Below, piece by piece: positions 45,166-49,961 of a stretch of DNA of 49,961 nucleotides. The notes beneath the pieces were generated by a model that did not search any database, was not told the origin of the DNA, and worked only from the letters and a program-made list of their open reading frames with translations. The stretch's first letter is position 1, and every line of letters begins with the position of its first letter. The position numbers were made by a program, and so were the translations under genes. This DNA comes from Planctomycetota bacterium (GTDB lineage Bacteria > Planctomycetota > JBDREB01), in assembly GCA_043820325.1 (NCBI GenBank), contig JBDREB010000019.1:1-49961 (forward strand). Reading direction: 5' to 3'.

Positions 45166-45909
45166 TCAACCCGACGGTCCTTCCCACACCAAAACCGGCG
45201 TAAAACCCGCCTGGTCGGCCGCCACCAGCCGGCAGGCCGCCCCGCCGGCGGCCAGGCCGGCCGTCCCCGCATGGCCGGGCCCGTGGACATGGCCGAAAAC
45301 ACACAGGTCGATCCGGTACCGCTCAAGCAGGCCCGCCGCCCGGCCGGGCGTGCCATCGGCGCCCACGGGCGGGAAATGGAGCAGTGCCACCCGGGGCGCG
45401 GCCCCGGCCGGCAGGGCGGCGAGGCTCAGTTCCAGCCGGTGCATCTCCCGCGCCAGAAGCCGTTCCCGTTCAGCCGGGTCCTCGGCCCGCGGCTCCGGGT
45501 CCGCGGCGACCGCCCCCGGCCAGGCGACGGCCGGGTCGTTCCAATACCGGGTACCGGCAAAGCCCGCCCCATCGATCAGGCAGGCATCATTGTTGATAAT
45601 GAATATACCCGGCGGCAGGACCGCCCGCACCTTGGCGGCCGACTGCCACCAGTAATCATGGTTGCCCCGCACCAGCACCTTACGGCCCGGCCGGGCGGCG
45701 AGCCAGACCAGGTCATCCCGGACATCGGCCAGGCGCATGGCCCACGAAAGGTCCCCCGGCACCAGCACCACATCCCCGGCCGCCACGGTCGCATCCCAGG
45801 CCCGGGCGATCCGCGCCGCATGGTCGCGCCATGCTTCACCGAAAATGTCCATGCTCTTGCCCGTCCCCCCCGGCAGGTGCAGATCGCCGATGGACCAGAT
45901 CATGGGCAT
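45166..45909 (-). CDS. Calcineurin-like metallophosphoesterase
   Basis: Motifs GDLHL, VPGDLSW, GNHDYWW, LLHFPP and FGHVHGPG. Start at 45909 (MPMIWS) or 45903 (MIWS). Confidence 0.8.
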   Translation of the reverse strand: MPMIWSIGDLHLPGGTGKSMDIFGEAWRDHAARIARAWDATVAAGDVVLVPGDLSWAMRLADVRDDLVWLAARPGRKVLVRGNHDYWWQSAAKVRAVLPPGIFIINNDACLIDGAGFAGTRYWNDPAVAWPGAVAADPEPRAEDPAERERLLAREMHRLELSLAALPAGAAPRVALLHFPPVGADGTPGRAAGLLERYRIDLCVFGHVHGPGHAGTAGLAAGGAACRLVAADQAGFTPVLVWEGPSG

Positions 45910-46126
45910 TGCCGATTGTGGATTGCGGATTGCGGATTGCGGATATGATGGCGACGACCGGTGACCGACATGCGGCAATTATGCCGTTCAGCACACGGGG
46001 TTCGCGGGAACCGTGGGAATTGCCGATTGCCAATTGCCGATTGCCGATTGAAGATATGATGGCGACGACCGGCATTCGATGTGCGGCAATGATCCCATGC
46101 GCCCCGTGGGATTCGCGGGGGTTTCC
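45908..46126. repeat. Two tandem units of about 111 bp, each headed by five ATTGCSG-type heptamers
   Basis: Heptamer arrays at 45908..45942 (attgccg attgtgg attgcgg x3) and 46019..46053 (attgccg attgcca attgccg x2 attgaag). Both are followed by atatgatggcgacgaccgg... and a GC hairpin. Confidence 0.8.
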
Positions 46127-46145
46127 GATCTGAAATCTTAAATCT

Positions 46146-46301
46146 GACGGAGTCGCAAAAAGTCAATTCCCCCTCTTCTGGAGGGACGCGCTCCGTCGCG
46201 TCCGTTTTTGTTCCTCCTATGAACGGCATCCCCGGCCACGACAGAGCGTGGCCCTCCATAGTGGAATCGGACCCTTGAAATCGACTTTTTGCGACTCCGT
46301 C
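46146..46301. repeat. 156-bp element bounded by a perfect 19-nt inverted repeat related to the arms at 1319..1514
   Basis: GACGGAGTCGCAAAAAGTC (46146..46164) pairs with GACTTTTTGCGACTCCGTC (46283..46301). The interior is unrelated to element 1 but has hairpins GGACGCG-ctccgt-CGCGTCC and GCCACG-acagag-CGTGGC. Confidence 0.8.
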
Positions 46302-46465
46302 CAATCTGCAATCTGCAATCTGCAATCGGCAATGATCTCGCGCGGTATCTGTGGGCAATCCGACTGGTGGGTACAAAGCAGGGGCGAAAGATTGGCGACC
46401 TCCGAACCGCGATCCTTGATCGGGGATTTCCAATCTGCAATCTGCAATCGGCAATCGGCAATTCA
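46302..46465. repeat. Two arrays of five heptamers in the opposite orientation (CAATCKG), 129 bp apart
   Basis: 46302..46336: caatctg x3, caatcgg, caatgat. 46431..46465: caatctg x2, caatcgg x2, caattca. The last array abuts the arfB stop codon. Confidence 0.8.
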
Positions 46466-46810
46466 TCAGTCCCACGCCTTCCCCGACCGGCCGGCCTTGA
46501 ACCCGCTGCGGCGGCGCTTGGTCGAAAGCCGGTCCTCGCGCGAGCCGGCCGTCGGCCGCGTGCGGAAGCGTTTTTTGCGCGGCCGGTTCAGCACCTCCAG
46601 CTTTTCGGCCAGCCGCTTGAGCGCGATCTGCCGGTTCTCCGCCTGGCTCCGCGTCTCCGCGCACCGGACCGTGATCCCGCTGGGCGGGTGGACCATCCGC
46701 ACCGCCGTCTCCACCTTGTTGCGGTGCTGGCCCCCCGGGCCCGAGGCGCGGTAGAACGCCATTTCCACCTCGCGCGCGAGCTGGTCAAGGTCGGTCGAAT
46801 ACCGGGGCAT
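46466..46810 (-). CDS. arfB: Alternative ribosome-rescue factor ArfB (peptidyl-tRNA hydrolase, YaeJ-type)
   Basis: Trimmed to ATG 46808..46810: [39 protein letters not shown]... plus an Arg/Lys-rich C-terminal tail; 114 aa. Confidence 0.85.
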   Translation of the reverse strand: MPRYSTDLDQLAREVEMAFYRASGPGGQHRNKVETAVRMVHPPSGITVRCAETRSQAENRQIALKRLAEKLEVLNRPRKKRFRTRPTAGSREDRLSTKRRRSGFKAGRSGKAWD

Positions 46811-46901
46811 GGTCAGTCCTCCGTCATCGGAAACTTCCATTATACCGACCGGCATTCGATTGCAAGGCCAAAACGCCCGCCGCGGCCATGGCAGAGGTTC
46901 G
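46651..46901. repeat. Direct repeat copy 1 (5' part of arfB plus its upstream region); partner is 48833..49083
   Basis: Colinear alignment by eye. 7 differences in the 160 coding nt, with the first ~90 nt identical. The upstream ~90 nt are more diverged but keep TTGCAA-N15-TATAAT and GGCCATGGCAGAGGTTCG. Confidence 0.85.
46839..46865 (-). promoter_or_regulatory. Sigma70-like promoter of arfB
   Basis: Minus strand reads TTGCAA-tcgaatgccggtcgg-TATAAT (15-nt spacer), about 28 nt upstream of the ATG. Confidence 0.5.
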
Positions 46902-46963
46902 CTCCTGCCGGGGTTCAAAGCCGCGTTTATTCGGGTGTTGTGGATCAATTGTAAGGACTTCCG

Positions 46964-47000
46964 GCGCGGTTTCCGCGCTTATATAACCGCGCGCGGTTAT
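46964..47000 (-). terminator. Two GC hairpins right after the COG2865-type gene (possible terminator)
   Basis: ATAACCGCG/CGCGGTTAT perfect 18-nt palindrome (46983..47000) and GCGCGG-TTT-CCGCGC (46964..46978). No clear U-run on the minus-strand RNA. Confidence 0.3.
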
Positions 47001-47001
47001 T

Positions 47002-48693
47002 TTATGCGCGACGCTCATACCACGCCCCTTTTTTGATTCCGTGGCGAACCAATGTTCCGTCTTCGGCCAGTCTCGTGAGAAGGCGGTAAGCCTGGTCCGG
47101 GGACAGCCGACACAACTCCGCCGCCTCCCGCCGCGTAATCCGCCCGTGTTTTTCCGCGTATTGCAGTACCATCTGCACCTGCTGCAGCGGTTCGAACCCC
47201 CGTTGGCGTACATACGCGGCCTTGTCGCCCAACGCTCTATAGGCGGCGGCCGACAGGTGCCAGATGCGGCCTTTGTTTCGGCCGCGGTCTTCAACAAGGC
47301 CCGCTTCCACCAACTTGCGCAGGATTGCACGGGCTTCGGATTCCGGTTTTTGGGTCAGGCGGGCGGTTTCTTCGGTGGGCAGGCTTCGGTCACGCCACAG
47401 GGCATTGAGTACAAGCATATCATCCAGGCCCAATTCGCGTCCGTTTTGCGCCTCGGTGACCAGCATGCGGACAAATTCCAGATTGGCTTTGCCGCCGGGA
47501 ATGTTTACGACGACACCGGTATGGTCACTGCGGTCATACGACGGCGCCGGGCGGCCATTGCGGAGTTGTTCGTAATAAATGGTGTCTATGCCCCGGGCCG
47601 TTCGTTCCACGATGCCGGCGCGTTTGAAGGCATCCGCCAGCAGCGGGTTGCGCGGTCGCGGGGCGGTGACCAGCAGGTTGTCCAGGCGCACGCCTTCCGG
47701 GAAACCGCCCGGATTGCTGATCGCGATATGGTCCTGATGCCACTGGAAGTGCACCGCGCCCAGCCGCAGGTAGTCGCGGTGGATGAGGGCATTGGCCAGG
47801 GCTTCGCGGAGCGCCCGTTCCGGGTAGTCGGGTATGCCCACACGCAGCATGCCGACCATGAGTTCCTGCTCGCGGTTGCGGGCGCGGATGCGGCCTTCGA
47901 TCTCCTCCATGACCCGTACAAGGGGCCATGTAAAAAAGTCGTTTACTTCCACATCAATCCCACGCATCACCTGGAATGCGGTTTCATGGCTGGGGAGATG
48001 ACGGCGGATTATGTTTTCCTTGCCGAAGAGCAATATGGCCGCAAGGCGTATACCGCGGACCGATCCGTTGGCATCTATGACACCCAGGGCTTTGGCGAGT
48101 TCCATGTCGGGAAGTTCGAGCAGGGATTCGTCACTGCGGCCCCGCCGCTCGCGGACACTGCGACGGTAGCGCTCGAATTCCAGCGGGTCAAGATCCTCCC
48201 ACCGCACCGAAGCGACGATCTGCGCCGAAGGGTCGAGCAGGCCGCGGTCCGCCTGGAACGATTGGACCGCATACGCATCCATCGGCAGGCATGCCGGCTT
48301 GCCATCGCCGCCGATGGTCCGGCGCAAAAACACACCGTCGCTTGTGCCCACCAGTTGCCGTGTGGCCGGGATCTCAATAACCAGCACCGGGTGGCCATCG
48401 ACGGGAACCGTTTCCACGCTTACGGTCAAAGGCGACCGCGTACGACCGGCGATCATCGCGGCCAATTTGCCGGGATCCGTGGCTTTATCGTGCCGCGAAC
48501 GGGCGCCGGTGATACGGCCGTCCTTTTCGATGCCGATCAGGAGATACCCGGGCTCTGTGCCGGGTCGATTGGCCAGGCAGACAACGGCTTCAACCAGGTC
48601 GTGATCATTCAGGGGTGCTTTCTGTTCACCCTTGAACTCGACCGCCAGGGTTTCACCGGCTGCGATCAGACGCCCCAATGTTTCCGGGGTCAT
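47002..48693 (-). CDS. COG2865-type protein: AlbA_2 (Schlafen-like) N-domain + HATPase_c_4 + C-terminal winged-helix domains
   Basis: N-terminal [11 protein letters not shown]... (AlbA_2 signature E-x-L-E-F-K); central [45 protein letters not shown]; C-terminal wHTH-like repeats. Its ATG overlaps the upstream stop codon (ATGA). Confidence 0.8.
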
Positions 48694-48998
48694 GGCGCCT
48701 CTTTCCAGAAACCGAGGCCACGGAGGTTTTTAACGATTTCTTTATCCAGCTTTGCGGCTTCAGATTGCTGGTCGCGCAACTGGGCTATGAGCCGCTTCAT
48801 CTTGGCCTCGAAAGGTTCGCCGTCATCCTCCTGCGTCTCCGCGCACCGGACCGTGATCCCGCTGGGCGGGTGGACCATCCGCACCGCCGTCTCCACCTTG
48901 TTGCGGTGCTGGCCGCCCGGACCCGAGGCGCGGTAGAACGCCAGCTCCACCTCGCGCGCGAGTTTGTCAAGGTCGGTCGTATACCGGGGCATGGCCAT
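48690..48998 (-). CDS. Chimeric ORF: ArfB GGQ N-domain fused to an unrelated C-terminus (possibly a rearrangement remnant or pseudogene)
   Basis: About the first 56 aa are near-identical to arfB at 46466..46810 (GGQ kept). After ...VRCAET it continues [47 protein letters not shown] instead of the basic tail. Confidence 0.6.
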
Positions 48999-49083
48999 CC
49001 TCCGTCAATGGATCGGCCCCATTATACGGGCCGGCCGATGATTGCAAGACTAAAACGGCAACCTCGGCCATGGCAGAGGTTCG
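48833..49083. repeat. Direct repeat copy 2 (see 46651..46901)
   Basis: See copy 1. The inner boundary of similarity is at about 48833, inside the chimeric ORF. Confidence 0.85.
49021..49047 (-). promoter_or_regulatory. Sigma70-like promoter copy upstream of the chimeric GGQ ORF
   Basis: Minus strand reads TTGCAA-tcatcggccggcccg-TATAAT (15-nt spacer). Confidence 0.45.
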
Positions 49084-49280
49084 AGACCAACTTCCGGCCT
49101 TGTCATCGGCCAACATCGCCTTGCATTTCCTTACCGCGGCCTGCGGCCGCAACCAAAGGCCGGCATACGGCATACAGTTTTGATTCGGACCGTAAGAGCC
49201 GGTCGTCCCGCTTCACCCAACCCCCACCGGCAGCCCGGGCGTGTTTCATGCCTCGGGACGCCCTTTGCGGATGCCCGGCC

Positions 49281-49541
49281 TTATCGCTTGATCCCCAGCT
49301 TCTGGCGCATATCCCGGGCGAAGATGCCGCCTTCACGCTTATGGCGCCGACGGGATCCCTCGACAATGCTCATGAATTCGGGATTCAGGGAAAGCGATAT
49401 GGTCTCCCAGTCGGTGTTGTGGATATCAAGCAGTGCCGCGACCGGTTTCCCCTGCCGGGTGAACACCACCGGCGACTTCCTGCTCCGGCTGACATACTCG
49501 GCCACGCTGGCCTTGGCTTCCTTCATTTCGACCCGGGTCAT
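49281..49541 (-). CDS. Type II antitoxin, Phd/YefM family
   Basis: MTRVEMKEAKASVAEYVSRSRKSPVVFTRQGKPVAALLDI...NPEFMSIVEGSRRRHKREGGI; 86 aa. Its ATG overlaps the toxin stop (ATGA). Confidence 0.75.
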   Translation of the reverse strand: MTRVEMKEAKASVAEYVSRSRKSPVVFTRQGKPVAALLDIHNTDWETISLSLNPEFMSIVEGSRRRHKREGGIFARDMRQKLGIKR

Positions 49542-49885
49542 AGTGCGATTTCCTTTCCGCCAATGACGATCTTTCCGCGGATTTTAAGCCCGACCGCACG
49601 GATACAAACACGCCGCATCGGCTCCGTTTCGACATCATAATACACGCGTAGTGCGCCGATGCGCAATTCCCAGGGCGCGACTGGATTCGGTCGCATGCGT
49701 TTCCTGTTGCGCGTTTCCACATCCGGTTGAAATATCAGGCGATCATCAACCGCATCAAGAATGCATACCTGGTCGCGCTTCCGCAAACATTTCAAATGGT
49801 CGCCGGCGGTTGGAGAATACTCCACTTCAGATTTCCTGATCCCTGTGGGGTGGACTGATGGTTTTCCGGAACGGGTTTGGCGCAT
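49538..49885 (-). CDS. Type II toxin, RelE/ParE superfamily
   Basis: ...PWELRIGALRVYYDVETEP.RRVCIRAVGLK...; 115 aa. Located upstream of the antitoxin. Confidence 0.7.
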   Translation of the reverse strand: MRQTRSGKPSVHPTGIRKSEVEYSPTAGDHLKCLRKRDQVCILDAVDDRLIFQPDVETRNRKRMRPNPVAPWELRIGALRVYYDVETEPMRRVCIRAVGLKIRGKIVIGGKEIAL

Positions 49886-49961
49886 TTTCCGCGTGACAAA
49901 TGGGCTGCGGCGGCTATCCTTTCTGGGGTCTGACTTCAGGATGATTGGTCATGCACCAGAT

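Follow-up and report, generated by a model that had tools for sequence, protein, structure and literature searches.

We analyzed a 49,961-nucleotide (nt) stretch of DNA from a Planctomycetota bacterium (NCBI GenBank assembly GCA_043820325.1), hereafter the window, which is the entire contig JBDREB010000019.1. Near one end it carries an open reading frame (ORF) that begins like the neighbouring arfB-like gene, whose product belongs to the release-factor-like GGQ proteins, and ends like hsdM, the methyltransferase gene of type I restriction-modification (R-M) systems. We conclude that this chimeric ORF is most probably a by-product of recombination, that is, a scar, and not an evolved protein or a new enzyme. 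An initial annotation had left the choice between a fresh rearrangement scar and a GGQ hydrolase with a new targeting module. Operon collinearity, microhomology at the joint, uniqueness of the fusion and a truncated GGQ domain favored the scar, although not a fresh one, and nothing was found in favor of a new module. The features on which the argument draws are as follows.

48690–48998 (−): chimeric ORF, 102 amino acids (aa) from the first ATG; codons 1–53 arfB-like, last 47 codons hsdM
48690–48832 (−): hsdM 3' remnant, the last 47 codons, encoding the C-terminal tail helix, recognized by tblastn, PADLOC and protein searches
48832–48844 (−): joint J1, arfB ...GCG GAG ACG / CAG GAG GAT... hsdM, spanned by independent contigs from sequencing runs X1 and X4
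48833–49085 (−): repeat copy B, with a terminator-like hairpin, TTGCAA/TATAAT-like hexamers, GGAGGA and arfB-like codons 1–53 up to the joint
47002–48693 (−): 563-aa gene, intact, with SLFN_AlbA_2, HATPase_c_4 and winged helix-turn-helix domains
46904–46982 (−): inter-block stretch, 79 nt between the end of R-M homology (46983) and copy A, with a second joint (J2) and a GC hairpin
46651–46903 (−): repeat copy A, with promoter-like hexamers, a Shine-Dalgarno sequence and codons 1–53 of the complete arfB-like gene
46466–46810 (−): complete ArfB-like gene (P0002), encoding 114 aa that include GGQ, the RSQxxNR helix and a basic tail

A hybrid of an ArfB-like start and an HsdM-like end

The ORF was found where the initial annotation had placed it, at 48998–48690 on the reverse strand. 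The gene caller's version (P0001) begins at the second ATG, at 48992, 6 nt later, and encodes 100 aa. This is the likely start, and GGAGGA lies 6–7 nt upstream of it. Fifty of the first 53 residues of P0001 (94%) are identical to those of P0002, and both run ...GITVRCAET, in agreement with the near-identity through ...VRCAET reported at first. Beyond this point the native P0002 continues with 61 aa that include 21 Lys/Arg and 6 Asp/Glu, whereas the chimera has 47 aa with 9 Lys/Arg and 10 Asp/Glu. The Arg/Lys-rich tail was thus rightly described as replaced, but the new segment, then given as 46 aa and acidic, is one residue longer and is not strongly acidic, although it differs greatly in charge from the native part. 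Its coiled-coil-like appearance stood, and is explained by the HsdM C-terminal tail forming a four-helix bundle with the HsdS coiled coil.

The HsdM resemblance of the segment, which the initial annotation had suggested, was verified by three kinds of search. Using the last 49 residues as a query, tblastn against plasmids returned 87 records, and in all 25 of the matches listed, type I M-subunit genes were hit at their 3' end, in most cases on into the start of hsdS. A large protein search recovered HsdM C-terminal fragments at 73–76% identity (P0049 and P0058 at 73%), and the last 47 residues of the chimera were 57–76% identical to HsdM C-termini. PADLOC MTase_I profiles matched residues 50–97 of the chimera, one model at the very end of its profile, and in a 522-aa HsdM the aligned part was residues 473–520 only. 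The HsdM_N and N6_Mtase domains are not present in the chimera, for which the Pfam match is to RF-1 alone. A search of PDB sequences with the tail alone gave nothing significant, and no other R-M remnant (hsdS, hsdM or hsdR) was found within the window.

In solved type I methyltransferases, the HsdM C-terminal tail and the conserved coiled coil of HsdS form a four-helix bundle, and deletion of this tail breaks the HsdM-HsdS complex (PMC9613975). By its sequence and by the helix that AlphaFold predicted at residues 61–92, the end of the chimera is classed as an HsdM C-terminal tail helix, the element through which HsdM contacts HsdS.

The joint and its presence in independent samples

The crossover at J1 lies inside a microhomology of ~12 nt, GCGCGGAG(A/G)CGC. 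The arfB-like gene reads ...CGG TGC GCG GAG ACG CGG AGC..., hsdM homologues read ...GGY GCS GAR GCS CAG GAR GAY..., and the chimera reads ...TGC GCG GAG ACG CAG GAG GAT... across the joint. The breakpoint therefore falls where GCGCGGAGACGC of arfB faces GCS GAR GCS C of the hsdM homologues, an extent read from these homologues and not from the donor hsdM itself. A microhomology of ~12 nt points to illegitimate recombination, of which it is a signature. That the reading frame continues across J1 is fortuitous.

The joint is real DNA that is present beyond one assembly, and its depth fits one integrated copy. In Logan unitigs of the source run (X1), the backbone had a depth of ~93 and the arfB 3' part 94.3. 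A single unitig of 2160 nt (46703–48862, depth 81) spanned J1. An 82-nt stretch that is identical in the two repeat copies had a depth of 162.5, about twice that of its flanks (73–94), with 73.2 for the copy-B flank. In run X4, which came from another groundwater sample of another study (2019), a 192-nt contig (48671–48862) crossed J1. Pieces of the insert and its flanks were also found in runs X2 and X5 (2018–2019) and in the RNA run X3 (2025). Only two 5' alleles of the arfB-like gene occurred in the Logan contigs; neither a third 5' allele nor insert-free cells were seen in them, and the depth differences of 73–94 were within noise.

We considered that the chimera might be an assembly artefact, either a chimeric join at shared arfB sequence or an insert-free chromosome accompanied by a separate 2.18-kb circular or tandem molecule. 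The ORF is 960 nt from the contig end, the last ~300 nt of the contig look mis-joined, and the identical 82-nt repeat exceeds the Logan k, such that the unitig graph alone cannot order the pieces. However, J1 lies inside unitigs of two independent samples, and a 12-nt microhomology is too short to create it at k=31. The depths near 1:1:1, with the repeat at twice that value, and the restriction to two 5' alleles also argue against an artefact. Moreover, a contig of X3 joined A-specific variants to the arfB 3' part, which is not expected from a free circle. An artefact is therefore very improbable.

The contig end itself showed unusual coverage. Its last ~136 nt (49826–49961) had a depth of ~10^5 in X1, compared to ~93 for the backbone, and of hundreds to thousands in the other runs examined. 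This piece had many different left flanks and loose ends with Illumina adapter, and gave no Rfam or plasmid match. The adjacent 49662–49825 had no Logan contig cover in X1. The contig end (49662–49961) was probably mis-joined, either to a hyper-abundant repeat or to an artefact.

A truncated GGQ domain

The initial annotation stated that the ORF keeps the catalytic GGQ domain. This holds for the GPGGQ motif and for the match to Pfam RF-1 (PF00472), which scored 58.4 bits against a cut-off of 35, but not for the whole domain. P0002 covers positions 10–106 of the RF-1 model, whereas the native sequence in the chimera ends at about position 50 of 116. It stops at ...CAET, just before the conserved RSQxxNR helix, which was found in 28 of 30 aligned ArfB-like members (the other two have KLQ for RSQ) and is replaced in the chimera; in release factor RF2 the equivalent TRSQIKN directly follows the breakpoint position. 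The TKPxR...RRL...K...R tail common to the family in the same 30-member alignment is missing as well. Against the NCBIfam ArfB equivalog NF006718 (cut-off 100 bits), the chimera scored 33.7 and P0002 84.7, and P0002 is therefore called ArfB-like only.

In Escherichia coli ArfB, removal of C-terminal residues abolishes ribosome binding (reviewed in PMC8012679). With the second half of its GGQ domain missing, together with the whole ribosome-binding tail, the chimeric peptide would not be a working rescue factor. A complete ArfB-like gene is retained downstream.

The AlphaFold model, built from a mixed alignment of both parents, showed three strands followed by one long helix (residues 61–92), with a mean predicted local distance difference test (pLDDT) score of 80.6; such an alignment cannot support the packing of the helix, and a confident model is no evidence of function. 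Foldseek matched the model to domain 3 of RF2 and RF1 (TMq 0.44–0.54).

P0002 belongs to a family of short (~111–126 aa) release-factor-like proteins that occur in Planctomycetota, Acidobacteriota, Latescibacterota and Chloroflexota (Ktedonobacteria) (loci L010–L089). In the PDB sequence search, P0002 matched RF2 domain 3 better than E. coli ArfB. A protein of 1115 aa from the representative library, outside the window (P0241), aligned to the GGQ region of the query at 10 separate stretches and could be a repeat protein or a mis-prediction.

An R-M operon block with an orphan accessory gene

The TGA of the chimera overlaps the ATG of the 563-aa gene by 4 nt (ATGA). The 563-aa gene has thousands of homologues at 75–80% identity in many phyla, and in the intact R-M loci that we read its homologue lies just downstream of hsdM. 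In L001 it follows the end of hsdM with the same 4-nt overlap, and L005 and L006 have it within an hsdM...hsdS operon, with hsdM upstream. DNA homology of the window to R-M loci extends from 46983, 19 nt beyond the stop of the 563-aa gene, to 48844, 12 nt beyond the breakpoint. One contiguous type I R-M operon block therefore comprises both the hsdM tail and the 563-aa gene. Thus both halves of the chimera are collinear with intact parental arrangements: the 5' half and its upstream region correspond to the neighbouring gene, and the 3' half with the next gene corresponds to hsdM operon blocks.

A homologue of the 563-aa gene with 80% identity is also an orphan in L002 (5380–6000 and flanks; also in L003). 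In L002, the 620 nt upstream of this homologue contain HsdR-like fragments in two frames, as judged by eye. They are preceded by a 249-aa HATPase_c_4 fragment; a PhdYeFM-PIN pair is found upstream and a further PIN gene pair downstream. It seems that this accessory gene can persist after its R-M system is lost, and that it has done so repeatedly. A search for literature on this AlbA_2/HATPase_c_4 accessory gene found nothing useful.

Uniqueness of the fusion

The same fusion was searched for in other genomes and none was found, although the C-terminal segment itself has homologues in HsdM. Among 5.8 billion clustered proteins, the sole full-length match was the window's own protein, and the next matches covered either the N-terminal or the C-terminal half. 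An exhaustive HMMER search over 1.84 billion representatives likewise gave no second fusion, and an exact-sequence look-up of the 102-aa and 100-aa forms found the product in no other contig of the collection. At 80 arfB-like loci in other genomes, there was no hsdM tail, second 5' copy or homologue of the 563-aa gene within 6 kb.

A comparison aimed at an empty site or a donor (P0004, P0005 and the 80 genome loci) was unsuccessful. The closest arfB-like genes were only 58–62% identical and had no conserved synteny, and for this reason the native and incoming arfB copies are not separable.

Direct repeats and the origin of the chimera

The 2.18-kb insert is flanked by a direct repeat of 253 bp (46651–46903, copy A; 48833–49085, copy B; spacing 2182 nt). 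The coding part of the repeat (160 nt) has 7 differences, which alter three amino acids and affect three more codons synonymously. None of the 7 falls outside the first 78 nt, and over the 82 nt that adjoin the breakpoint the copies are identical (Fisher p = 0.014). About 100 nt upstream of the coding part are also duplicated. CTTGCAATC, GTATAATGG and GGAGGA are common to both copies, while the spacer and the 5' untranslated region (UTR) have diverged much more than the coding part. A consensus promoter scan returned just the terminator-like hairpin of copy B and missed the shared hexamers, as these are 15–16 nt apart. The promoter copy and intact frame attributed to the ORF by the initial annotation are thus present at the sequence level, in the form of the shared hexamers, GGAGGA and the open frame. 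The divergence of the copies (7/160 in the coding part, more upstream) and the occurrence of the structure in a second sample do not fit the proposed freshness of the rearrangement. No tRNA or att site was found at the repeat edges, and an Rfam search of 45800–49961 gave no matches even at E ≤ 1.

We propose the following series of events. A 2.18-kb segment with the last 143 nt of hsdM and the complete accessory gene would have been set between a partial copy B and a complete copy A of the arfB-like gene. Illegitimate recombination at the ~12-nt microhomology would have fused the hsdM tail, at one end of the segment, to arfB codon 53. Copy B would have kept its promoter-like hexamers, Shine-Dalgarno sequence and start codon, leaving the hybrid frame open to the native hsdM stop. 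The other side of the segment would be associated with a second, diverged arfB 5' allele, followed by the intact gene. Copies A and B may be alleles from different lineages that were joined by homology-facilitated illegitimate recombination (HFIR; PMC3240628) or a related one-end-homologous event. Two lineages are suggested because conserved hexamers stand beside a diverged spacer and UTR, and because the 82 nt next to the joint are identical. Tandem duplication followed by decay is less likely, as the same features fit two lineages better.

A site-specific integration scar was also considered, in which a defence island that targeted the 5' end of arfB, and brought a replacement 5' end, would later have eroded to the hsdM tail and one gene. 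Direct repeats do flank the insert, with one copy diverged as if it came from another host, and the identical 82-nt stretch on the crossover side could be the core. The toxin-antitoxin genes next door and the orphan homologue of the 563-aa gene among R-M debris in L002 would also agree with an island. However, the window contains no integrase or other island gene and no tRNA-like attachment site, and such an insertion was found at 0 of 80 arfB-like loci elsewhere. In addition, the repeat ends exactly at the hsdM microhomology, which illegitimate joining fits better than an att core. Site-specific integration is thus unlikely. It differs from the illegitimate recombination proposed above in event history alone, and the ORF is a scar either way.

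Expression and possible functions of the hybrid ORF

The single metatranscriptome, X3, had low-depth contigs and a flat profile, with depths of ~14 for tuf, 5–10 for rpoBC and 2–4 for the 563-aa gene. One contig (48953–49231) contained the first 46 nt of the chimeric ORF and 233 nt upstream. The region 48522–48952 had no contig cover in these low-depth data, in which DNA carry-over is possible.

For the chimera to be a functional GGQ protein with a novel targeting module, the HsdM tail would have to dock the GGQ fragment on the HsdS coiled coil, or to compete with HsdM for HsdS as a decoy. The ORF is intact and has promoter-like hexamers and a Shine-Dalgarno sequence, the AlphaFold model is ordered, and the HsdM tail is an element of the bundle with HsdS whose deletion disrupts assembly (PMC9613975). 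On the other hand, the GGQ domain is cut in half, the window contains no hsdS, hsdM or hsdR, the fusion was found nowhere else, the tail is no more than a collinear part of the operon block with which it arrived, and the body of the ORF had no RNA contig in X3, where depth was low. A targeting function is thus very improbable. Equally small is the chance that the cell makes the hybrid peptide and has put it to a new use, in which its tail helix would dock on the coiled coil of an HsdS encoded elsewhere in the genome and the peptide would modulate type I R-M assembly as a decoy, or tether a GGQ loop there; a weaker version of this idea is that its translation is needed in cis to couple the 563-aa gene to the arfB promoter.

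If the chimera has a role, it is probably in cis, where the copy-B promoter and the translated leader would drive the orphan 563-aa gene and couple its expression through the ATGA overlap; the chances for and against such a role are about equal.

Several points weigh against regarding the ORF as a mere scar. The intact frame and the conserved promoter-like and Shine-Dalgarno elements suggest that the peptide may well be made. In the model, the HsdM helix follows the strands in the manner of the native helix of RF domain 3; it might take the steric place of the lost helix, and a folded GGQ mini-domain may result. The presence of the structure across runs spanning years is compatible with selection, which would more plausibly act on the 563-aa gene. 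Finally, the extent of the microhomology is read from hsdM homologues, and the mechanism of the duplication is a proposal.

Neighbouring repeats and toxin-antitoxin genes

Four short arrays (~4.6 copies each) of the 7-nt unit CAATCKG / ATTGCSG, two per orientation and arranged as inverted pairs, were observed at 45908–46462, between the stop of the arfB-like gene and a metallophosphoesterase gene. Such arrays are confined to this part of the window (11 matches vs 0.01 expected). Their Logan depth was 3–12 times that of the backbone, and alternative joints (45944->46308/46431) were seen in several runs, which suggests a multicopy, variable repeat element.

On the other side of the chimeric ORF, 49281–49885 (−) contains an apparent toxin-antitoxin pair in reversed order with a 4-nt overlap. 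The first gene is a 115-aa ORF with a RelE/ParE-like motif, WELRIGALRVYYDVE..., recognized by eye and with no profile match; its predicted N-terminus lies in the suspect contig end. The second encodes an 86-aa Phd/YefM-like protein, which scored 27.2 bits against Pfam, just under the cut-off of 29.8.

Implications and comparison with known systems

For annotation, the chimeric ORF should be recorded as a fusion remnant of an arfB 5' fragment and an hsdM 3' fragment, and not as a release-factor-like protein; beyond annotation the finding has little import. It illustrates that a microhomology joint can give an in-frame, promoter-bearing hybrid gene that resembles innovation by domain swap. It also illustrates that an R-M accessory gene (AlbA_2/HATPase_c_4/winged helix-turn-helix) can outlast its R-M system, apparently via a captured housekeeping promoter. 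The orphan accessory gene among hsdR debris in L002 hints at a value of this gene that is independent of restriction.

Compared to ArfB/YaeJ, the chimera has the GPGGQ loop together with two to three beta strands in its 53 N-terminal residues, but neither the RSQxxNR helix nor the linker nor the Arg/Lys-rich tail by which the mRNA channel is occupied; it is a fragment of this family and not a member. Compared to HsdM, the last 47 residues align with HsdM C-termini and the stop of the chimera still overlaps the start of the downstream operon gene, whereas the chimera lacks the HsdM_N and N6_Mtase domains and has neither hsdS nor hsdR in its vicinity.

The closest parallels to the event itself are chimeric ORFs and orphan genes that HFIR (PMC3240628) or other illegitimate recombination leaves behind in islands of defence and effector genes, such as the orphan arrays of type VI secretion system (T6SS) loci in Vibrio (PMC5361080). 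Unlike in those cases, the joint here is in frame and the promoter is kept, which leaves an apparently intact hybrid gene, and the mechanism is deduced from the resulting arrangement. As in those accounts, a foreign segment has microhomology at one end and homologous sequence at the other, and is accompanied by a truncated gene copy and an orphan accessory gene. The chimera adds one more case to a kind of event that is already known.

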